The notes under the pieces: model-generated | Seen by the model: only the letters and a program-made list of their open reading frames with translations | Told to the model about the DNA's origin: nothing | The model's database searches: none | NCBI GenBank assembly: GCA_951406725.2 | Contig: OX597822.1 | Span: forward strand, 90,706,001 to 90,770,000 | Source of the DNA: Octopus vulgaris | Lineage: Eukaryota | Direction of reading: 5' to 3' | Length of the DNA stretch: 64,000 bases | In this document: in pieces, positions 7,498-59,401 of the stretch | Layout of the letters: every line of letters starts with the position of its first letter | How positions within the stretch are numbered: the stretch's first letter is position 1 | Program-made: the position numbers and the translations under genes

Positions 7498-8987
7498 AAT
7501 TACATTACAAATATGTTTACCAATACAACAGGAATTATTCTGATTCCTGTAAGAAATTTACCCTACATTCCAGTATGGCTTTTTAAAGTCAACTTATTTC
7601 TCACACAAAATCTCAGTGACTCATACATTCTGTTCAATGGAGCTTAATTTTTCCAAATACACCTCCTTTACTTTATTATTAGATCAATTTTATAATCTAT
7701 CAGTCGAATACTTAAGTTACATGTTATATGTAACCTCTGTTTAATTTTTTCATTTCCATATTTTGCATACTAGCCTTCTTAAATATGCTTAAAATTAGAT
7801 TTGAGTTTGCACAACTATTAGCATTCTCCTGTTTTACAGATTTCTCATGATCATTTAGAGTTGATTAACTCATATCTGTTTCACACATGATACTTGCATG
7901 CTGTATCATTCTTCTTCTGTATAAGCTTCTGTAGCTTTTGTAAAATGAAACAATGGAAAGAGTTGTGAGTCTTTTTCCTGAGGGAGAGGTGAGCCATCAG
8001 ATATTCATGAGTCCTGGACTATTGCATTGGTTGAACCACAATCACTTTTACCAAGGATTAATAAATAAATGGCAACTACATAGATGTATTTTAATTGAAG
8101 AGTTCTTTTGTTAACGTGTCATCTGTTAAAAATTATACAGTCAAGCAAGTAGCTTCATACTATAATACTTTCCAAATGAAAGTAAATCTATTGGATCAGT
8201 GTTGTTCTGTTATGCTGAAATCAGACCATCAAGTAAAGTAATAAATATGTCTAAAACTTTTTGCTTTAGACTTTCATTTCTCAGATAACCATGATGTGTG
8301 ACATACACAGACATGTGTACAGAAATCTCTGTGGGTTTCAACGATGACTGATTCCACCATTCTGCCAACAGAATACAGGTATACTCATTGAAATAGTACA
8401 TAAGTAGGTAAATATTCCACAGATTACATGTAACCAGCATGACAAAATGTGAGACAAAGCTGATCGTTTGAATTCTAGTTACTCTCTACCTGGTGGTCCA
8501 CCAAACAAGTTTCCATTTACTGAATTTCACTTGTAATGTTTGGATCTACCTTGTATCATTGAACTGTGTCATTCATAAAATTGCTTACATTTTTAACAAA
8601 TAGTTTTATGGTACCACCTTTCGACCATGGATGATCATGGGATTGCACCTAGAAAGTTACTCCCCGAGGCACAAGTCCAAGCAAGGTTGTTTAGGGAAGA
8701 CTAACAGTCACCTATGCATACCAGCCTCCCTTCTCCATGCCACTGATGTTATCCAAGGGAAAGGCATATATATATATATATATGACAAACAAGTAAAAGA
8801 TAAAAGTTATATATATATATAATATATGCCTATATAAATTTATAGACACACACATATATACACACTCATACACATATGGGGAAAGTCTGACAATTAGATG
8901 TTTTCTTGTAGATAACAGCATTATTAGTGGGTACCAACTGAAGTATCCAGTTAATGGCAAGGTTGGACATCGATTTAAAAGTTTCTA

Positions 8988-10145: not shown

Positions 10146-10800
10146 GGGATCTTTTCGGTTTGAACGGCAGTTTTTAACATAATTTCTAGGTAACTAAAAA
10201 ATTTCAAACTTCGTATACTGGTAGAATGTGTTTATAAAACATCTTTTTCTCTTGGCTTTATTGAGAAAATTCTATAGTTTGTAAGATATTTGTTGTATTT
10301 TTTCTTCAATTTCTGCAATTTCAACCAATCAGTGACGTCTATTGAGTTAAAAAGCATTCTGTGCCGTATGAATATGTCCCTCATTTAAGAAACAGATTGG
10401 GTTTATTTACATTTCTGAAGGAAAAAAGATACCCTTCCCCCACCCCTAACCCTAACCCTAACCCTAAAAGAGATTGAAATGCAATAGATCGATACTAGGG
10501 TCATAATTATGGGTGACAATTTCATATGACACCGCTAGAAAAAACTGCCGTTCAAACCGAAAAGATCCCGTTATTGTTGTTTAGTTCAACGTCAGCTCTA
10601 CTCAAGCAGACTTATGAACAAAACGTTTCAGCCATGACCATCGCGACTATTTTCGTACAAACCATCGAGGACTACGTTCAATGGTGTCGTTCCGTAGCAG
10701 GATGAGCAACCATATAGAGACCGACTCGTTCATCGACATGGCGATAGTTACGACGATGAGCTGTTAACATCTCTAACCTCACCTTCAACGAAAAGATCCC
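10146..10800. mobile_element. Telomere-repeat MITE copy 1 (10146-10569) plus ~220 bp captured flank plus a second terminal fragment; 6-bp TSD
   Basis: TIR GGGATCTTTTCGGTTTGAACGGCAGTTTTT; internal (CCCTAA)n at ~10443-10467; TSD ATGCAA at 10140-10145 and 10801-10806. Confidence 0.9.
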
Positions 10801-20787: not shown

Positions 20788-21025
20788 TACACATTTATAT
20801 ACATATACATAAGTATGTAGAAATATCGCCTGTACACATTGAAACACATACATATATCCATCCATCGAAATACGTGAATTACATTTTTTAAATGGTAAAA
20901 ATTAAAATCAAGGTAATTAACTAGGCAACCATTAGTGACAGTCCCATTCTCTTGCGACGAAGTTGATTTTCGTTTGCAGAAGCTGACAGATAACTACTGT
21001 CTATCACAATGCTGTTATCATATCC

Positions 21026-21294
21026 AGACATGTTGAATTAACAAGTTCAGACATGTTGAATTAACAAGTTCAGACATGTTGGCGATCGACAAGTCCATGC
21101 ATGTTGGCAATCGACAAGTCCAGACACGTTAGCAATCCACGTGTTCAGACATGCTGGGAAGCAAGCAAGTCCAAACATGTTGGTAATCGACAAATCCAGG
21201 TATGTTGGCCATCAACAAGTCCGAGCATGTTCAGCAATCAACGAGTTCAGACATACTGGCAATCAGCAAGTCAAGACATGTTTTCCCGCCAAAA
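21026..21294. promoter_or_regulatory. Tandem 23-26-bp repeat array in which each unit is a p53-family-like response element, ending in an E2F site
   Basis: About 10 adjacent decamer pairs, e.g. TAACAAGTTC AGACATGTTG (x2), AAGCAAGTCC AAACATGTTG, CAACAAGTCC GAGCATGTTC, CAGCAAGTCA AGACATGTTT; then TTTTCCCGCCAAAA at 21281-21294. The repeat is certain, the function is inferred. Confidence 0.7.
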
Positions 21295-21364
21295 ACAGAT
21301 TGATTTGAAAATTATTTTACTTCTTTGTTCTCCTACAGCCATCACTATAAGTTAATAAGTTATT

Positions 21365-21793
21365 GGGATATTTTCGGTTTGAACGGCAGTTTTTAACATA
21401 ATTTCTAGGTAACTAAACACTTTTAAACTTCGTATACTGGTAGAATGTGTTCATAAAACATCTTTTTCTCTTGGCTTTATTGAGAAAATTCTATAGTTTG
21501 TAAGATATTTGCTGGTTTTTTTTTCTTCAATTTCTGCAATTTCAACCAATCGATGACGTCGATTGAGTTAAAAAAACATTCTGTGCCGTATAAATATGTC
21601 CCTCGTTTAAGAAACAGATTGGGTTTATTTACATTTGTGAAGAAAAAAAGATACCCTTCCCCCCACCCCTAACCCTAACCCTAACCCTAAAACCCTATTG
21701 AAATGCAATAAATCGATACTAGGATCATAATTATGAGTGACAATTTCAGATGACACCGCTAAAAAAAACTGCCGTTCAAACCGAAAAGATCCC
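21365..21793. mobile_element. Telomere-repeat MITE copy 2, 6-bp TSD
   Basis: Same TIRs and (CCCTAA)n; TSD GTTATT at 21359-21364 and 21794-21799. Confidence 0.92.
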
Positions 21794-22635
21794 GTTATTG
21801 TTGTTTAGTTCAACGTCAGCTCTACTCAAGCAGACTTATGAACAAAACGTTTCAGCCATGGCCATCGCGACTATTTTCGTACAAACCATCGAGGACTACG
21901 TTCAATGGTGTCGTTCCGCAACAGGATGAGCAACCATATAGAGACCGACTCGTTCATCGACATGGCGATAGTTACGACGATGAGCTGTTAACATCTCTAA
22001 CCTGTTAACATCTTCAACACCATCACCTTTAATCAGGGTACAGTATAAAGCCGTTTAACTGTTAGAAATAGCAGCTAAATTCCCTTAAATTACACCACGC
22101 CGTCTTAGAAAAAGAGCACTCTAGATAATATGTCTAGAAAGCGGACAAGATAGTTTTCATCTTAGGTCTACACATTCATTACTAATCTTATTTATAACAA
22201 CTGCAGCAGCAGTAAAGCACCAACAGCAATAGCTGTAGCAGTAGCAACAACAACAACAGCAGCTGTAGCAAAAAAAAAAAAAAAAAACAGCAATACTCCG
22301 AAACAAATTAACAAGGAAGCAACCTCTATGTAGTCATTCGACATGCTAGAAATGGCTGCTAAATCTCCTTCTGATCACATTTTACCGTCTTAAAAAAAAG
22401 GATACATTGGATAATATGTTGTTTTGGAATGGTTACAACTGCTAAGAACATTAGGTAGTTCTAGAAGGCAACATTAAGACTACCAACGAAAGCTCTAACA
22501 GGATTATCATAAAGCCATCGAAGAGTGGGAGCTGCTATATAGTTGCTCATTGTGCTAGACATAGCAACCTAACCATTCTCAATAACATCTTGCTATTTTA
22601 AGAATGGAGACTAATTTTGATAATATAGTTATTGA

Positions 22636-24586
22636 CAGAGCTGGGCATAAATCCGTTAATCCGTTAATCGTTAATCGAAGTTAGCATTTTCGTTAACGAT
22701 TTAACTTTTAAGTTAACTTTGAAACTCAAGTCTGTTAACCGAAAAATTTCATAAAAACCGGTAAACGTTTAAAAGTTTCTAGTGTTTTCAGATTGTCTTA
22801 GCATATTTAATATCGTATGTGTCATTCTTTCAACTCCGATATAACGCCACTTTTTGCTTGTAAAAACAGCCGGAAATGTCTTTGTCCTGTCAAGAGGGAA
22901 CAGTGACCACTCTGAGGTGGATGTCAATAGAGAAAATATTGACTTCCATAAAGTGGAAAACATAAATGGAAAGAAAAAAGTTGGTAAATATTTCGGTGTG
23001 AACGCATATAGTTGTTACGTGGTAGCGGGGCATGCTAGAAATAGCAACCAAATCTTTCCTTTTCTGGAAAAAAAGGATCCGTTTACGGGTGATTTCGATG
23101 TCACATTGGTTGAAAGCATGCAAAATAACCTGGAAAAGAAACAAAGACTCACGAAACAAAACTCTCTTTCGTGGGGAAACTTCGAGATCCATACCACCCC
23201 TCCCAGCTTTTTTCTTTTTCGGGTTTCGAGGTCAAATACATTGAATGTACCCGAAAAAAAAATCTGTGGAAGAAAATATTCCACACCGAGGTACGAAATA
23301 TTTACCGAAAAAATAAAATCTTGTACCGATTATACCTGTATTTTGATTAATGTACTTCAAATTGAAACGTGGCAAAATTTTTGTCGGTTGCCATCTGGGA
23401 TAATTTTAGTAACAAATCAAACAGGTAAGATGCACTAAGAGTTTCACTTTTAGCGTTTGTCTATAATGTTATTGCTTATACACCTGTTAATCTATTTACC
23501 TGCCCATAAATGTCAAATTTAGTCACCAAGATCAGCTAAAACTACATAGCTGTAAACCAGTGGTATATAAAGCACCCACTGACAAAATTTCAAATCTGTA
23601 TCTAAAGAATTTACAAAGTTACAAGCAAATATTGTGGACACTCCTCTTGAACCTGAATAAGTCAAAATAGCATTACGTTTGACATTAATATGAACACTAA
23701 AGATGTTTTTAGGTGTTTTTTTCTTTCTTACACGTAAACATAACACGGCCTTGCTCGGTTGGGACTACACGTGTGTTACTTTGACATCATCATTCCATAA
23801 AATTTGTTTATAGGGAGAAAAATATTGAAAAATATTAATATATGTGTGAGAAAGAAACGAGGAGGGAGGTTTTGAGATGTGCTAGAAACATTTAGCTCTG
23901 AAATTATTAACAGTTTTTTTTTTTTAACCGAAAATGTTTCTCTCACGGGTTTTCAGTGCGTAGTGAAAAGGGGGGAAAAGAAAAAGGCCGAAATCGTTTC
24001 GGGTTGGTTTGATTAGGGAGTGGCAGGAGTGGAAAAAAATTTTCAAAACTTTTTTCTTTTCTTTTTTTTCGTTCTGAAGACTTTGGTGACAAACATTGGA
24101 AAAAATCCCCGTCAAAACGGAGAAATTTCAACTTATGTTGGCCGTCTGATCTGAAATTCCGTTTTTCAGAAGCACCCCAACCAAAAATTTTGTCTACTCT
24201 GCAATCGTAATCTACACCGTTTGAAAGGTATTTGTATAAAATTTAGTTAAAAAATACCCATTTTCCAGGAAGTTACGAAGGGGGAGATGGCGGGTCCTGT
24301 GAATTTTCCGAAACTCGGAAAAATTTTTCCAATAAACTTTGCAGATATTCAATCTACAAGATATAAACAATTTTTTTAGTGAAAGTTTCGTTAAAAAGTA
24401 TCCATTTTTCTGGAAGTCATTAGGCAACAAAATCGGTGAGTTATTAAACTGTAGTTATGCCTTTTTTCAATAAAAGTTAACGTTATTGGATTAACGTTAA
24501 TTTCCGTTACATTTCCAATTAACGATTAACGAAAGTAACTTTTTGGTTAACGTAGTTAACTTTTCGATTAACGGTGTCCACCTGTA
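22636..24586. mobile_element. Non-autonomous hAT-like element
   Basis: Left end CAGAGCTGGGCA, right end TGTCCACCTGTA, subterminal CGTTAA/TTAACG arrays at both ends; 8-bp TSD GTTATTGA / GTTATTCA (7/8). No transposase motif recognised. Confidence 0.75.
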
Positions 24587-24611
24587 GTTATTCATATATT
24601 ATCAGAATATA

Positions 24612-25015
24612 GGCGCAGGAGTGGCTGTGTGGTAAGTAGCTTGCTAACCAACCACATGGTTCTGGGTTCAGTCCCACTGCGTGGCATCTTGGGCAAGTGT
24701 CTTCTGCTATAGCTCCGGGCCGACCAATGCCTTGTGAGTGGATTTGGTAGACGGAAACTGAAAGAAGCCTGTCGTATATATGTATATATATATATGTATG
24801 TGTGTTTGTGTGTGTTTGTGTGTCTGTGTTTGTCCCCCTAGCATTGCTTGACGACCGATGCTGGTGTGTTTACGTCCCCGTTACTTAGCGGTTCGGCAAA
24901 AGAGACCGATAGAATAAGTACTGGGCTTACAAAGAATAAGTCCCGGGGTCGATTTGCTCGACTAAAGGCGGTGCTCCAGCATGGCCGCAGTCAAATGACT
25001 GAAACAAGTAAAAGA
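24612..25015 (+). mobile_element. Full-length tRNA-derived SINE (family B, CORE-like)
   Basis: A box TGGCTGTGTGG, B box GGTTCAGTCCC, CTTGGGCAAGTGTCTT, internal (TA)/(TG) tract, tail GCAGTCAAATGACTGAAACAAGTAAAAG; partial copies at ~28815-28975, 48606-49027, 49540-49735, 55360-55435, 62670-62765. Confidence 0.85.
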
Positions 25016-25342
25016 GAAAGAGAGAAAGAGATAAAAGAGATATAAAAGTTAATGATGAACACACACATTTGACCATAGCTGGTCTGAGCCTAAACAGCAG
25101 CAACAACGAATATATTAACTCCACTTTGCAGTAACAACGTAAACGTTACTTAACTAGAATATCATTTTATTGCCTTTGTCAAATTTCCAGAGAAAAGTAC
25201 GCAAGGACTACTACTGCTGTGACTAGAAATAAGAGATAGATGGCAATTAGATTAAAAAAAGAAAAGAAGAAAAGAAAAGAAAAGGAAGAAACAAAAAACG
25301 AAAAAAGAGAAAGAAGTAAAGAGAAATTGTCAAATCAGTCTG

Positions 25343-25373
25343 TTTTCGCGGGAAAACATGTTTGGACTTGCTG
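25343..25373 (+). promoter_or_regulatory. Overlapping E2F / p53-like composite site
   Basis: TTTTCGCGGGAAAA overlapping AAACATGTTT GGACTTGCTG (19/20 to consensus); inverted homolog of the end of the 21-kb array. Confidence 0.6.
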
Positions 25374-25674
25374 ATTGCGAAGTATTTCAGTCACATTGTG
25401 TTAGACTGGCTACAGCTTCTGCAAGTGGAAATGGGTGTGGTGGTAACAACGAATGGGAGACGAGTGTGGTAGTAGAAACGATTGGGAAGCTATTTTGCCT
25501 TGATTTTGATGTTCTCCATTCATGAAATGCAATTGAATTGCGTATGAATGGATGGATCTTATGTGTATGTGTATCTGTTTCGGCGTGTACAAGCGAAACA
25601 ACAGTGGCAACAGCAAAAGAAAATTTTAAAAATTAGATGAATGAATGGATACATAGACAAATAAATAAATAACT

Positions 25675-26789: not shown

Positions 26790-27555
26790 TTATACTGAAA
26801 ATCACCACTCCTCTTTTGTCTAGCCTTACTTAATACCTCTCTCGAAATTGCTCAATAATGTGCAATACGGTTATAAAATGTTTGATAAAAATATAAATCA
26901 TCTCATTTACACGGATGATTTAAAGCTCTTTGCAAAAAATGACAAACAACTTCAGGGCTTACTAGCAATTGTTAAACAATTCAGTGATGACATCAGGATG
27001 CAATTTGGCCTCGATAAATGTGCAAAAGCTACCTTTATCAAAGGGAAAATGACAGAAACATCTAATGTTAATCTTGACCAGCAGAATGTCGTAAAGGAAT
27101 TAGAACCAGCGGAATTAGAACCTTAGGGGTATTTGAAGGGGACGAAATCAAATATTCAGTGATGAGGGAAAGGATCAGTAGAGAATGTTATCGCAGGGTA
27201 AGGGCAATACTCAAGACAGAGCTGAATACAAGAAACAGGATAGAAGCGATCAATGCTTTAACCATATCAGTCGTAACTTACAGCTTCAATATCATTAACT
27301 AGTCATTTACTGAAATATGTAATCTTGACAGAAAAATACGAAAATTGTTAACAATGCTAAGAATGCACCACTCTAAGGCAGATATAGAACGACTTTATCT
27401 GTCAAGAAAAGAGTGTGGCCGTGGACTATAACAACTGAAATTAACAATGAAGATTTCCACAATTGGCCTAGACACCTACCTGAACAACTCTAACGACCGG
27501 ATGTTAAAACTTGACTGAAAGCATGAAAATAAGAAAGTATCATATCCAGTTACCC
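26790..27555 (+). mobile_element. R4/Dong-like LINE RT fragment, degenerate
   Basis: INHLIYTDDLKLFAKN..FSDDIRMQFGLDKCAK, followed by LDRKIRKLL..MHHSKADIERLYL. Confidence 0.85.
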
Positions 27556-32337: not shown

Positions 32338-32870
32338 ATGCCATGAGAGCCACTAGGCAGTGGCTCTCATGGCTTCTGATCCTAACTGATTGGAAGTGTT
32401 ATCATGTACATTGCTTTATCTTGGTATAAAAGATCGGCTACAGCAAATATTCTGCTCAATACCACAGATTTGCTTGTCATTTACTTGACCTTAATCAGTT
32501 GAGCATGTACCTTAGTGGCTGTCGATATGTGCATCTCTGATCACGAGCAGAAGTAGTGGGGGAGCATCAAAGTGTTGAGAGGATTTCTCTGGGGTTTGGA
32601 TAATTCATCTTTGGAAACATGTTTCATTCAACTTCCTTAAACAACCTTATTCAGGGACCTGCTGAGCAGGATGGGCTACTCGACCTGAAGAAAATTCTAC
32701 CTGGGCCCCACCTGCAAGGTCATGCGCTGCTTATCTTGATATGAAATCACTATGTCGTGCACATATGGTTGTGATGCATGTGCCTGGTATACCCTTATCA
32801 GGCGGGTAGTCATGATGGGTATACTTGGCTTCGTATGCTTTACTTTGATGCCATGCACTGCTCTCTCACT
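32338..32870. repeat. Unclassified interspersed repeat flanked by (AAT)n/(GAT)n
   Basis: Higher-GC 530-bp block between triplet tracts; no protein motif recognised. Confidence 0.4.
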
Positions 32871-32871
32871 C

Positions 32872-32950
32872 AATAATGATAATAATGATGATGATGGTGA
32901 TGATGATGATGATGATGATGATGACGACGACGACGGCGGCGGCGGCGGTA

Positions 32951-33006
<56 letters not shown>

Positions 33007-33016
33007 AATAATAATA
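32872..33016. repeat. Compound trinucleotide microsatellite
   Basis: (AAT/GAT)n-(GAC)n-(GGC)n-(AGC)n-(AAC)n-(AAT)n. Confidence 0.95.
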
Positions 33017-34140
33017 AGGACAAAGGACTGGATGCTGCGACTTGTGAGCGAACACGAAAGCAGCAAAAGCTGCATTCTATTGTCAAGGAAGCTTATAAGT
33101 TCGAAAGGGAACTAGACATTAACCTTGAATCAAATGAAGAACCGGAAACCACTGCTACCAAGCAAGCAAAGCGAATCAAGCAGACTGCAAAAAAGAACGG
33201 GCAGAATCAAATTGAGAGGCGGTGGATCCAGAAGCCTCTGCATGGGCAATATATTCTCCGAAGCCAAAATGCTGATGTAGACCAAGCAACAACCCATCAG
33301 TGGCTGAAGAGTTCAGGATTGAAAGCAGAAACTGAAGGCTTCATACTGGCAGCACAAGATCAAAGCTTGTTTACCAGAAATTACCAGGCTAGCGTTCTCC
33401 GAAACGGTACTGACCCTAAATGCAGATTCTGCGACACATTTGACGAAACAATAAACCATCTCGTTTCCGGATGTCCTGTGCTGACACCAAACGAATACAA
33501 AAATCGCCACGATAGAGTAGGACAGTATATACATTGGAAGATATGTAAACACTACAAATTCGGCACTCCTGCTAACTGGTATGAACATCATCCTCAGCCA
33601 GTTGTTGAAGGTAAAAATGTCACCATCCTCTGGGATTTTCCAGTCAACACTGACAGAACGATCAAGGCTAATCGACCAGACATAATTATTAAAGACAGGG
33701 AAGAAAATACCTGCAGACTAATAGAAGTAAGCGTCCCCACTGATAACAATATATTTGTAAAGGAATTCGACAAACTTAGTAAATATAAGGACCTGGAAAT
33801 CGAAATACAAAAGATGTGGAATCTTAAAACAAAAACTGTTCCTGTTATTGTAGGTGTCCTAGGTATGATAAAAAAGGGATGTCAGAAACACCTAGACAAT
33901 ATCCCTGGAGAACCATGTCACAAGGAAATCCAAAAGATTGTGCTAACAAGTACTGCCCACATCCTTAGAAAAACCCTATCAATGTAAATGTTTGTGTTGT
34001 ATTACATGGAGATATTTCTCTACTTTCCCTCCCCAAGCTTTCAGCTAAATTTCAACAACTCTTAACCTTCACTTGCCCTAGGGCGCTGGGTGTGCCCCGG
34101 CAAGTGATTGTATCAAACATGCAGATTAAAAGTAAATGAC

Positions 34141-47279: not shown

Positions 47280-48097
47280 TAGTACTCTATTTGATCGAAC
47301 CAGGAAATTGACCACAGCGATATTTGAATTAGGAACGTAACGAGGCGTAACTCGAATGTATTTGTCAGGCGCTCTACCAATTCTGCAAAACCACCGTACT
47401 TATTTCGATAGAGAATGTACGAGGTCGGAAAGCAGATTATCCAGAAAGCTGCTGCTAATCCGTGTAAACTGTTACAACGAGAAGAGGCACGGCGAAATAT
47501 CGAGGGCAGTGAAATGAAAGAAAATGAATTGTTCACTGTATAGTGAAACTTTCGACTGGAATGCGTCAGACACATGGAGAAACAAAAGAGAGAAAAACGT
47601 AGAGGTTATAAAGAGAGCGAGAGGAGAGAGAAAATAGTGTATGAACAAGGAAGAGAGAGAGAGAGAGTGAGAAAGAGACGAAGTGTTTAAAAATGAGAGT
47701 GGGGAGAAGATCGTATGTGAGCGAGGAAATGTAAGAGAGAAAGAGGAATGGAGAGAGAGAGAGAGAGAGAGAAAAACGAAAGGGTTAAAAAAAAGAGAGA
47801 AGCGGGAGAAAGTAGTGTGTGAGCGAGGAAGAGAACGAGAGAAAGAGATAGAGACAGTAAGAAAGAGAGAAAGAGAGAGTAAAAAAGAGAAAGAGAGAAA
47901 AGAGAGGGCAGAAAATGGAAGCGGTTAAAAAAGAGAGGGGAGAAAGAAAATTGTATGTGAGCGAGGAAGAGAGAGAAATATGGAAGGAGAGAGAGAGTGT
48001 GAGAAAGAGAGAGGGGAGAGAGAGGGAGAGAGAGGAAGAGAAAGAGAGATAGAGAGATAGAGAGAGTGTGTGTTGTTGAATGAATTTCGTTTTAATA

Positions 48098-48185
48098 GGC
48101 TCCGCCCATTTCGCCGCGAAACATGTTGAAACTTGCTCGAATCTGAACTATAAAAGTGACGACCCCCGCGAAAGTACTCACTCTA
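48098..48185 (+). promoter_or_regulatory. Promoter of the bZIP gene: GC box, E2F-like site, p53-like element, TATA box, initiator
   Basis: GGCTCCGCCC 48098-48107; TTTCGCCGCGAAA 48109-48121; AAACATGTTG AAACTTGCTC 48119-48138; TATAAAAG 48149-48156; TCA(+1)CT with A at 48180, 31 bp after the TATA start. Confidence 0.8.
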
Positions 48186-48245
48186 CTGTTTTGCTTATCG
48201 GCTGACGTTCGTGTCTCTCGTTTACACACACACTAAAACAAACAA

Positions 48246-48479
48246 ATGGAAGACGAAACACATTTGGATCATTCAGAATCAATGCTGGAAGAAAATTCTC
48301 TTTATTTACCAAGTGTGACTGACTTGGACACTGATGTGAAGAAAACAGCGGATATCTGTGTGAAAAACAACAGCCTTTTACCAATGATTAAGCTTGAGTT
48401 AAAATCTAAATTGCAACTCAAAAGACACCGAAACGGGCAAAGCTTGGACATTGACGCTGAACCTAAACCGGAATATAAG
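48246..48479 (+). CDS. ATF3/JDP2-like bZIP transcription factor, coding exon 1 (78 codons)
   Basis: ATG in CAAATGG context; LLPMIKLELKSKLQLKR resembles the ATF3 KEELRFAIQNK motif; donor AAG|GTATGT, phase 0. Confidence 0.82.
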
Positions 48480-48495
48480 GTATGTTGCTTTACGT

Positions 48496-50946: not shown

Positions 50947-51054
50947 ATGTCTCCTTCAGAAATACAACGAAGAAATGAAATGAAGAATAGAAATAAAGTT
51001 GCTGCCAAGAAATATCGTGATAAACAAAGGATGAAGAAATATGAAAATGAAATG
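50947..51054 (+). CDS. ATF3/JDP2-like bZIP, exon 2 (basic region, 36 codons)
   Basis: Polypyrimidine tract + TTTCAG|; MSPSEIQRRNEMKNRNKVAAKKYRDKQR (N-x2-AA-x3-R signature); donor |GTCAGT, phase 0. Confidence 0.88.
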
Positions 51055-51588: not shown

Positions 51589-51711
51589 GTGCTGGAAGAA
51601 CTGACAACCAAGAATAGTAATCTAAAGCAGTTATACCAAGAAATGTTGTCAATGCTTATGGATCTGAAGGCTCAAGAGAATCCTGTTGTTAAAGCGGAAC
51701 CACATCCATGA
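51589..51711 (+). CDS. ATF3/JDP2-like bZIP, exon 3 (leucine zipper, 40 codons + TGA)
   Basis: TTGCAG|GTG; VLEELTTKNSNLKQLYQEMLSMLMDLK with L-L-M-L heptad spacing and the conserved a-position Asn, in register with the basic region. Confidence 0.85.
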   Translation: MLEELTTKNSNLKQLYQEMLSMLMDLKAQENPVVKAEPHP

Positions 51712-52929: not shown

Positions 52930-54195
52930 AAAGCAAAACAATTGGACGAGGAATGGAATGAAATTTAATAGTATTTTAGAATGTCTAATGGAATTAAAAT
53001 TATTTTTATGTATTTGTGTACAGTTAAACTAATTAAATATTATTTTACAGAATAATAGAATTAAAATTTCTTTAATTAAACCCCTTTCTAACATGGAAGT
53101 ATCCAGAGAGTATTTTAGGCACGTAATGCTTTATGAGTACAAAAAAGGAAACTCTGTAATCGAAGCGACTCGAAACATACACTCAGTTTATGGGAAAGAA
53201 TGCTTGAATGAAAGAACTTGAAGAAGATGGTTTGAAAAATTCAGAAGGGGAGATTTCAACCTTGAAGATGAAGATCGAACAGGACGTCTAGTTGAGTTTG
53301 ATGATAAGCTCCTTGAGGCATTACTTAAAGAAAATCCTGCATTATAAGTTGAAAAATTGGCAATAAAGCTTAGTTCAAACCATACAACTGTTCATCGTCA
53401 TCTTCAATAACTTAGAAACGTTCCTCAACTTGGAAAATGGGTGCTTCATGAATTGTCCGAAAGCAACTGCAAATCCCGAGTTGACATCTGCCCTTCTTTC
53501 CATTCTCGCAAACTCATTTCACCCTTTTTGGATAGACTTGTGACTGGTGATGAAAAATGGATCTTCTATCGAAATGTTAAACGTCGTTAACAGTGGCTTG
53601 GTAAAAAGAGAAAAAGCTCAACCACAACCGAGAAGGGAACTTCACGGAAAAAAAGGTTCTTCTCTGTCTGGTGGGATTGCAAAGGAGTAATTCACTTTGA
53701 ATTGTTACCACCTAATGCAACAATCAATGCTCAAGTCTATTGTCAGTAATTAGAGCGTTTGAACCAAGCTTTGAAGGAAAAAGACCAGCTTTAGTGAATA
53801 GAAAAGGAGCGATGTTTCATTAGGACAATGCGCGACCCCACACTGCAAAGATCACATCACAGAAGATCGAAGAGATTGGTTGGGGAAAAATTCCTCATCC
53901 ACCTTATTCTCCCTACCTTGCTCCTTCAGACTACTATTTGTTTCGCAGTTTACAGAATCATTTGGGGGATGTAACTTTCGCAAGCTAGGAGGAGATCGAA
54001 ACTGACATTTCAGAGTTCATCGCTTTGAAACCAAAAGAGTTTTACATTGATAGGATTAAAAAGCTTGTAAATAGATGGAAGGAAGTCATAGATAAACAGG
54101 GAAAGTACATTGATGGTTAATTTTCAATTAAATATAACATTTGATCACTTGTTTTCTTTATTCAAAATTCAGACAGAACTTATGGGATAACCTGA
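52930..54195 (+). mobile_element. Second mariner (DD34D) family, transposase pseudogene from ATG 53094; left TIR not seen
   Basis: RRWFEKFRRGDFNLEDEDRTGR, WVLHEL, TGDEKW, DNARPH, PPYSPYLAPSDYYLF; right TIR GAACTTATGGGATAACCTGA|TA. Confidence 0.9.
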
Positions 54196-57158: not shown

Positions 57159-57265
57159 AAATCACAATAAGGGTGAAAAAAATTGAATATTAATTAATAA
57201 TAACATCAATTTAAAACACCAAGTGGCCTAGCGTAAAAAAAACTGTGATACAGTAAAAATTATTA

Positions 57266-57603
57266 ATACAAGTAATAAGAGAGGGACCACATGTGGTCAC
57301 TCTAACGCTAGAAATAGATCCGCAAAGGGAATCCACCACTAAAGAATTGTTCTCAAGCATTAATTCAACATGCCAAGAATGTAAGCGGGCAGGACAAATG
57401 AAAAATAACGAGATAAATAAACGGACTGAAATTTCTTCAATGACAATCTAACATACATTTTTTCGTTATTTTTCATTTGTCCTGCCCGCTTACATTCTTG
57501 GCGAGTTGAATTAATGCTTGAGAACAATTCTTTAGTGGTGGATTCCCTTTGCGGATCTATTTCTAGCGTTAGAGTGACCGCATGTGGTCCCTCTCTTATT
57601 ACT

Positions 57604-58184: not shown

Positions 58185-58384
58185 AGAAAGAGAAGGAGAA
58201 CTGCTTTCATGGAAGCCACATTTCTGTTTAAAGAAGGCTTCTGTGAATTGAAGTCGAGATAAACAAACGGACAGAAATGTTCTTCAATGACAATCTAACA
58301 TACATTCTGTTTCACAAAATATTCCCATGTATTTATCTCTCAACAGTAGTAATATACCAAGAAACGTCACAGTTTCAATTGTAT

Positions 58385-58517
58385 CCGCCCACTAAACAAA
58401 AAAAACGTTCGTCCCCCGCCCACCTCCTCGCCTCACGTCGCAAAACAAGTTCAGACTTGTCGCTCGCCTGAAAGAAAAAATTGTATATAAGCTGTGTTTC
58501 TATCTATATCTTTAGTC
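58385..58517 (+). promoter_or_regulatory. Second promoter-like module: GC boxes, p53-like element, TATA, Inr
   Basis: CCGCCC x2; AAACAAGTTC AGACTTGTCG 58443-58462 (19/20); TATATAAG 58484-58491; TTA(+1)GTC with A at 58514, 30 bp after the TATA start. Confidence 0.55.
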
Positions 58518-59401
58518 GGCTCACGGGTTTCAATGTACGTTTGACTTTATCTTTCTCTCTCTTTTGCAAACACACAATATGTGTGTTAACAATATATTTC
58601 AGATTTCCGAGTCCTTGTCGATTCGTCATCTTAATTCACCGTCTCTCTTTATTTTATTTCTTTCTTCATTTATAACCATCACTTGTATTCTTTATCTAAT
58701 TTCCTCATATTCAGTGATATACAATATATTCTCTCTGCGCTGTTTAATCACCATTTTTATCTAAAATGTTTTGTTTAACAACAAGTTCACTCTCGCCTAA
58801 TCATATATATAAAAACGCATTCTGAACGTATGCACTCAAACAATTCATCACACAAACACACACACATAATTTATTCACACACTATACCTCGTCCTTTCTC
58901 TGATGTTAAATTGCAGATTCGGAAGCAGGTTTGTATGTTTTTGTATCATATTTTGTATTGTTTAGATATACTCGTAACACACGCGCGCAGATTTTGTAAA
59001 CGTACTGCATGCTTTATTAGGATTTTTTATTTTTTTCGAGTGAAGAAAATAAGATTGTGAAATATCCTTTCGTAACGTCATTAGTGTAAGAGAAATAAAC
59101 TGGGAACTGAAACCAAGTCGATGACTTGGGTCTACCGAGCGAGAAGCTTATCTTTTCTTTTATTACACGCATCTTATACTTTATGAATGTGAAATGAAAT
59201 TTTGTCGCATAGTTTTATTTTTACGTTTTTTTTAATTCTCAAACCCATTTGTTAACATTTCTTAGAAATTAAATCTACCAGCTGCAAGTAAAATTTCGAC
59301 TCCAGCAATTTTCCTTTTTATTATCATTTGGATATAATTTTAGAGATTTTTTTCCAGCAAAGAATAAATATCAATTGTCCGAAGTTAACCATTTGGATCA
59401 A

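Follow-up and report, generated by a model that had tools for sequence, protein, structure and literature searches.

We identified, within a 64,000-nucleotide stretch of Octopus vulgaris DNA (hereafter the window), an element at 48102-48184 that probably serves a divergent octopus bZIP gene of the Fos/ATF3 family as its TATA promoter, and the p53-type site it carries lies far beyond chance. A near-consensus p53-type site sits in a TATA promoter, so p53-family binding and activation are likely. The explanation we favour, with slightly better than even confidence, is that an octopus p53-family protein would bind the 48 kb site and activate the bZIP gene directly, both steps being predicted from the DNA sequence. 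Such a protein would bind about 40-60 bp upstream of the start and, once bound, would switch on the small bZIP gene, with stress as the presumed trigger. The E2F-like motifs of this promoter would likely be weaker accessory sites and not a proven either-or switch. An array of p53-type units at 21 kb (about 27 kb upstream of the gene) and a related copy at 25 kb could serve as distal enhancers, while a promoter-like site at 58 kb would be a second p53-family target.

Support for direct regulation comes from the gene itself, which is intact and annotated and whose 5' leader is retained in the O. bimaculoides orthologue. The literature, represented here and below by excerpts of the papers cited, indicates that p53-family DNA specificity is conserved to Drosophila (PMC2807882), that proximal p53 binding correlates with activation, with ATF3 tabulated as a human target (PMC5511239), and that invertebrate p53 homologues are p63/p73-like (PMC8901663). 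The 48 kb site could instead belong to a germline, tissue-specific or constitutive programme under a p63/p73-like protein and not act as a damage switch. The almost complete overlap of predicted sites among family members (PMC2807882) is consistent with such a role. However, the ancestral p63/p73 gene acts on genome damage (PMC7498329), and a short, TATA-driven bZIP gene would fit an inducible gene, and we consider a programme of this kind distinctly unlikely.

The 48 kb promoter and its p53-type site

We scored as p53-type sites pairs of RRRCWWGYYY half-sites with a spacer of 0-13 and the core C and G intact (PMC5511239). The 20-mer at 48119-48138 matches two such half-sites at 19/20 positions with a spacer of 0, and all four core C/G bases are intact. 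It ends 10 bp before the TATA box TATAAAAG and shares three A's with the E2F-like repeat TTTCGCCGCGAAA. A first-pass annotation of the sequence had described both the overlap of E2F-like and p53 motifs just upstream of TATA and the 19/20 match next to it; we recovered the overlap, and the coordinates and spacing of the p53 match were reproduced (Table 1).

Table 1 Features of the bZIP gene, its promoter and related sites in the window
Feature	Position	Strand	Basis or detail
Copy A of duplicated sequence with E2F/p53 composite	20826..21326	-	alignment to copy B
Tandem array, period about 25 bp, 11 units	21016..21283	-	each unit a p53-type 20-mer plus 3-6 bp spacer
Optimal E2F site, overlaps array end unit (18/20)	21281..21295	-	equals the 15-mer named as E2F8's preferred sequence
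Copy B of duplicated sequence, single unit	25310..25596	+	E2F 12-mer 25344-25355 (1 mismatch), p53-type 20-mer 25354-25373 (19/20)
GC box CCGCCC	48102..48107	+	motif match
E2F-like inverted repeat TTTCGC-C-GCGAAA, TTTCGCCGCGAAA	48109..48121	.	loose E2F 8-mer at 48114-48121, minus strand
p53-family response element, predicted	48119..48138	.	19/20, no spacer
TATA box TATAAAAG	48149..48156	+	motif match
TGACG half-site directly 3' of TATA	48157..48161	+	motif match
Second E2F-like 8-mer TTTCGCGG, between TATA and predicted start	48166..48173	-	same 8-mer as 48114-48121
Initiator-like TCACTCT	48178..48184	+	A at 48180 is TATA + 31
Coding exon 1, 78 codons, family N-terminal motif	48246..48479	+	Fos/ATF3-like bZIP
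Coding exon 2, basic region	50947..51054	+	Fos/ATF3-like bZIP
Coding exon 3, short zipper and stop	51589..51711	+	spliced CDS is P0001
Second promoter-like site	58443..58491	+	19/20 p53-type 20-mer 58443-58462, TATATAAG 21 bp later, two GC boxes

The motif TCACTCT was judged against the initiator (Inr) consensus, and the distance from TATA to its A is 31 bp, in line with the usual spacing of ~30 bp; from the TATA box and this initiator-like motif we infer a transcription start at 48180. We take the GC box to be an Sp/KLF site. The TGACG half-site is a possible bZIP or autoregulatory site by analogy with mammalian ATF3, whose promoter has an autoregulatory site at -20, where the octopus half-site also lies (PMC3278981). 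The surrounding patch is rich in CpG (obs/exp 1.7 vs 0.78 for the window), and its 13 CpG place it in the top 2% of 150-bp windows. Neither a CHR nor a CCAAT motif was found near the 48 kb or 58 kb promoters. A similar 10-mer (9/10) occurs just 3' of the predicted start at both promoters (48198-48207 and 58516-58525), which may be chance. Sequencing archives were uninformative here: 20 of 24 listed runs contained at least half of the sequence words, none of the listed runs was an RNA run (the listing thus has no bearing on expression), and reads of 4 runs over 48062-48495 gave no contig in 2 runs and one unrelated 38-bp piece each in the other 2.

We compared the number of p53-type sites in the window with 150 order-3 Markov simulations, counting 20-mers with at most 1 mismatch. 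The expectation was 0.027 sites per window, and any site at all appeared in 3/150 simulations, whereas five were observed (at 21163, 21213, 25354, 48119 and 58443). These five trace back to three independent origins, one at 48119, one at 58443 and one shared by the 21/25 kb pair, which corresponds to a Poisson P of about 3e-6. Two of the three independent sites lie within 30 bp of a TATA pattern that covers 3.5% of positions. Because the window was picked from many, the Poisson figure is weakened, but the proximity to TATA is hardly affected. An 18/20 site at 8669 was left out of the count, as it falls within a SINE-like stretch that we take to be a common SINE.

These numbers bear on the null explanation, in which a non-functional coincidence gave the CpG-rich 48 kb promoter its p53-like and E2F-like matches. 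The window was selected after the fact, and the loose E2F consensus TTTSSCGS is common enough to be met by accident (17 matches in the window, and at least one in 5% of shuffles of the 48 kb promoter). The p53 half of the composite is another matter: for any given start, the chance that a 19/20 site falls within 200 bp is about 1e-4, and the arrangement of p53-type site and TATA recurs at 58 kb. We hold coincidence to be highly improbable.

The promoter-like site at 58 kb has no E2F motif at 58443, and it lies in a patch (58385-58520) with a CpG obs/exp of 1.6 vs 0.78 and 11 CpG (top 5% of 150-bp windows). Judged by eye, no convincing ORF follows it within the window, and no Rfam match reached the gathering score anywhere in the window; 25 sub-threshold Rfam matches in 57.5-64 kb were rejected, as they fall on AT-rich repeats and hairpins. 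The patch is possibly a p53 target that is non-coding or has a long leader, as far as its sequence indicates. Upstream lies a long near-perfect inverted duplication (57265-57600). A direct repeat of part of it (52 bp, 94%) occupies 58255-58306, about 140 bp ahead of the p53 site.

The bZIP gene, its family and its promoter in relatives

We next consider the gene that this promoter would serve. Both introns are GT-AG, and the spliced product (P0001, 154 aa) is identical to O. vulgaris CAI9728262.1, annotated as 'ATF-3-like'. Three residues distinguish it from O. sinensis XP_029642103.1, and it shares 86% identity with O. bimaculoides XP_014786646.1. The octopus bZIP contains domain PF07716 together with a shared N-terminal motif, and the alignment of the family (A2) revealed that this motif and the bZIP are common to its relatives. 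A full scan with the octopus protein recovered 61 relatives at E 0.001 or better. We looked up 20 of these, and those with names are molluscan, nemertean, echinoderm or hemichordate proteins labelled ATF-3-like, c-Fos-like or uncharacterised. Against solved structures, the best PDB matches of the family profile were FosB and c-Fos (E 2e-13 to 5e-13), and that of the octopus bZIP alone was C/EBP-beta (E 5e-4). HMM search found no second gene of the family in the window. A degenerate transposase remnant, presumably mariner-like, lies just 3' of the gene (53095-54130).

In a quick tree of 65 rows, in which vertebrate ATF3 is absent and deep branches are without resolution, the octopus bZIP groups with proteins of Argonauta and Sepia (SH-aLRT 90), all on long branches, and lies apart from the ATF3-like rows of Asterias (a starfish) and Glandiceps (a hemichordate). 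A basic-region Cys is present in 15/65 family rows, and the octopus bZIP has Tyr at this position. More broadly, short Fos/ATF3-like bZIPs are numerous and fast-evolving in molluscs and often have Phe, Ser, His or Tyr in place of this Cys. These comparisons place the octopus bZIP as a divergent, cephalopod representative of a Fos/ATF3-like family that has expanded. The split between Fos and ATF3 has been placed in the bilaterian stem (PMC4736632); given this and the quick tree, we therefore use 'ATF3-like' as a family label and not as a statement of orthology. The first-pass description of an ATF3-like gene is thus correct as to the Fos/ATF3-like bZIP family, but the quick tree separates the octopus protein from the deuterostome ATF3-like rows.

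The same distinction applies to the invertebrate p53-to-ATF3-like circuit that had been proposed from the sequence. Its octopus side is borne out, in that the TATA promoter of an Octopus ATF3/Fos-like bZIP carries a non-random p53-type site. The mammalian side is only an analogy: ATF3 orthology lacks support in the quick tree, so conservation of the p53-to-ATF3 link known from mammals does not follow.

Relatives also offer a partial view of the promoter. The O. bimaculoides gene model P0064 reads through the leader and keeps the initiator stretch, and it skips the p53 site. The second E2F-like 8-mer has apparently changed in this species, because P0064 has K for E there, a reading taken from the protein. 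A metagenome scan with P0001 yielded 137 pattern matches and 0 confirmed, and one with a 12-row alignment yielded 9 confirmed of 80. In the 9 distant family loci so confirmed, searched up to 1.2 kb upstream, we found neither a p53 20-mer with at most 2 mismatches (0/9) nor the E2F 8-mer (0/9); sites with 3 mismatches occur in the metagenome loci L007, L008 and L009. The 0/9 count is weak evidence, because all are distant paralogues, two of them represent one gene, and the promoter is probably missing from several.

The duplicated 21/25 kb sequence and the E2F overlap

The 21 kb and 25 kb composites belong to two inverted copies of one sequence. Over 80 bp the copies align at 84% (E 6e-17), and beyond the units the resemblance continues for about 200 bp with 135/179 aligned bases identical; the score of the 140-bp core of this flank alignment was reached by 0/300 shuffles. 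The 21 kb copy has amplified a p53-type unit into an array; the 25 kb copy has one. Seven of the 11 array units have intact cores and at most 3 mismatches, and TRF counts 10.5 copies. Core positions deviate less often (3/40) than positions elsewhere (30/160, p 0.10) or other G/C positions (14/50, p 0.016), a test of constraint that we left uncounted because the units are not independent. The E2F sequence that caps the array is the reported E2F8 preference, and its 12-base core is the E2F2/DP1 SELEX motif (PMC4686757). Arguably, an 11-site array capped by an optimal E2F site is more striking than the 48 kb composite itself. The first-pass annotation had passed over the array, as it had the second 8-mer (48166-48173) and the E2F-less 58443 site.

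An identical 12-bp block is present in both copies (20974-20985 and 25413-25424) and is splice-acceptor-like in one orientation; the duplicated sequence may include a non-coding exon. The interval between the copies (21327-25309) consists largely of insertions, among them a short element with 30-bp inverted ends from 21364 (more copies at 10146 and 43626) and, as we assume, a hAT-like remnant at about 22640-24585 and a SINE-like stretch. Originally, about 1 kb may have separated the inverted copies. Farther along, a long ORF at 32740-33987 has a weak zf-RVT match and an RVT_1 fragment lies at 26824-27126; by its appearance, we take the ORF to be the C-terminal part of a restriction-like-endonuclease non-LTR retrotransposon.

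All composites could derive from one old mobile element or repeat with its own E2F and p53 sites, of which the promoter co-opted a decayed copy, so that the overlap would be inherited and not selected. The 21/25 kb copies are indeed inverted, about 75% identical in their far flank and include one with an internal array, and p53 sites are known to arise from mobile elements and from fuzzy tandem repeats (PMC7498329, PMC3386156). However, the 48 kb site shows no flank homology to these copies: its match to them is confined to the 29-bp motif (79%, E 0.11), and its anchored flanks are identical to those at 25 kb at 16/45 and 7/45 positions. Furthermore, no third copy stands above background in the 64 kb, and the outer ends of the copies carry no target-site duplication of more than 4 bp. 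A common mobile origin is in our view quite improbable.

The duplication also bears on the claim that the composite had been used three times in the locus. Three independent uses are unsupported, because a single duplicated sequence accounts for both the 21 kb and the 25 kb site, which are homologous beyond the motif. The composite arose at most twice, as the 21/25 kb sites lie in inverted copies and the 21 kb site ends an array of p53-type units. The geometry said to be shared by 48 kb, 25343-25373 and, inverted, 21264-21294 is present in outline, with composites at 25344-25373 and 21264-21293, but is not the same in detail. The E2F and p53 motifs at 48 kb share 3 bases, and 7 bases separate the T run from the A run; in the 21 and 25 kb composites the E2F 12-mer reaches 2 bases into the p53 site and the runs are 6 bases apart. 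The 48 kb composite is one base out of register.

Its E2F motif is also the weakest E2F half of the three composites. The 8-mer at 48114-48121 (minus strand) matches the loose TTTSSCGS and fits the canonical TTTC[CG]CGC at 7/8 positions. Scored against the SELEX 12-mer (a GGCGGG core between A/T runs, taken from PMC4686757), the 48 kb site has 3 mismatches, the 25 kb site 1 and the 21 kb site 0.

A rival to direct activation is that the overlap is a switch, at which E2F/DP (DREAM) or E2F7/8 represses the gene and is displaced by p53 after damage, and that the composite was selected twice (at 48 kb and at 21/25 kb). An overlap is found at 2/3 independent p53 sites. When we fixed the p53 20-mer and shuffled its flanks, a loose E2F overlap arose by chance in 0.9% of trials at 48 kb and 0.8% at 58 kb, or about 2% for at least one of these two promoters given the 21/25 kb case. 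Two loose 8-mers fall within a single 150-bp stretch, that of the 48 kb promoter, as in 0.1% of shuffles (P about 0.001), and this pair of identical motifs suggests that E2F may matter more than an accessory input would. The 21 kb site is an optimal E2F sequence. A switch is also physically plausible, because the shared bases are an A/T run of the kind that E2F8 touches in the flanking minor grooves (PMC4686757), although overlap is no proof of exclusion.

Several observations run counter to a switch. The motif at 48 kb does not conform to the canonical 8-mer and lies one base out of place, the 58 kb p53 site has no E2F motif, and the second 8-mer has apparently not been kept in O. bimaculoides, as deduced above. 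Between the 21/25 kb copies, the motif (33/37 identical) is kept no better than the adjacent flank (27/30), and the comparison with the far flank gives p = 0.08. In a mammalian meta-analysis, interference of p53 with activating factors was an exception, although that analysis concerns p53 repression and bears on the octopus case indirectly (PMC4612452). The switch is thus unproven: it would draw on two independent cases that are one base out of register with each other, with E2F absent at 58 kb. We regard it as doubtful. A bolder version would make the locus a dedicated p53-response hub, in which E2F overlaps of two separate origins gate an amplified 11-site enhancer and a pair of p53-driven TATA promoters; E2F/DREAM would keep the bZIP gene silent until evicted by p53 and would then re-silence it, making a one-element pulse generator. 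This we think unlikely.

Comparison with known systems and implications

Direct activation by a p53-family protein, the reading we favour, has its closest counterpart in mammalian ATF3, which like the octopus gene is a small AP-1-type bZIP gene and for which TATA, E2F and p53 sites are listed among its promoters (PMC5511239, PMC7498329, PMC3278981). The available passages on mammalian ATF3 contain no overlapping p53/E2F sites, whereas the octopus p53-type site has such an overlap and lies 10 bp from TATA. The proteins differ as well, the octopus one being a fast-evolving paralogue with Tyr in the basic region that does not group with deuterostome ATF3-like proteins. For the array at 21016-21283, the fuzzy tandem repeats of mouse Rbl2, Ncoa1 and Klhl26 are comparable, in that a degenerate repeat gave rise to a cluster of p53 sites (PMC3386156). 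The Rbl2 cluster is intronic, comprises 7 half-sites and has a demonstrated function (PMC3386156). The octopus array, known from sequence alone, has 11 full sites with a period of about 25 bp, an E2F cap and an unamplified inverted copy.

Convergence of p53 and E2F inputs on transcription is also a property of the p53-p21-DREAM/RB-E2F pathway (PMC4612452, PMC5511239). There, in the passages available, the two inputs act on separate gene sets, p53 as activator of one and DREAM/E2F as indirect repressor of the other, whereas the octopus motifs overlap in one element.

Overlapping p53 and E2F sites have been proposed in the BIRC5/survivin promoter. That case is one of p53 repression and is disputed. 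The repression there is attributed to DREAM/CHR (PMC4612452). The octopus site, in contrast, is near consensus and placed like an activating site. A search of open-access literature, represented mostly by titles and the starts of abstracts, returned no report on octopus p53 targets, on an overlapping p53/E2F composite like this one or on this locus.

If the overlap were proven to act as an E2F/p53 switch, it would integrate the two inputs in a way unlike the p21-DREAM route, which is indirect. If the 48 kb site is bound, the 21 kb array beside its single-unit copy would illustrate how a p53 enhancer amplifies, and the locus would provide concrete, testable direct targets of the cephalopod p53 family and a link from p53 to an AP-1-type bZIP outside vertebrates.
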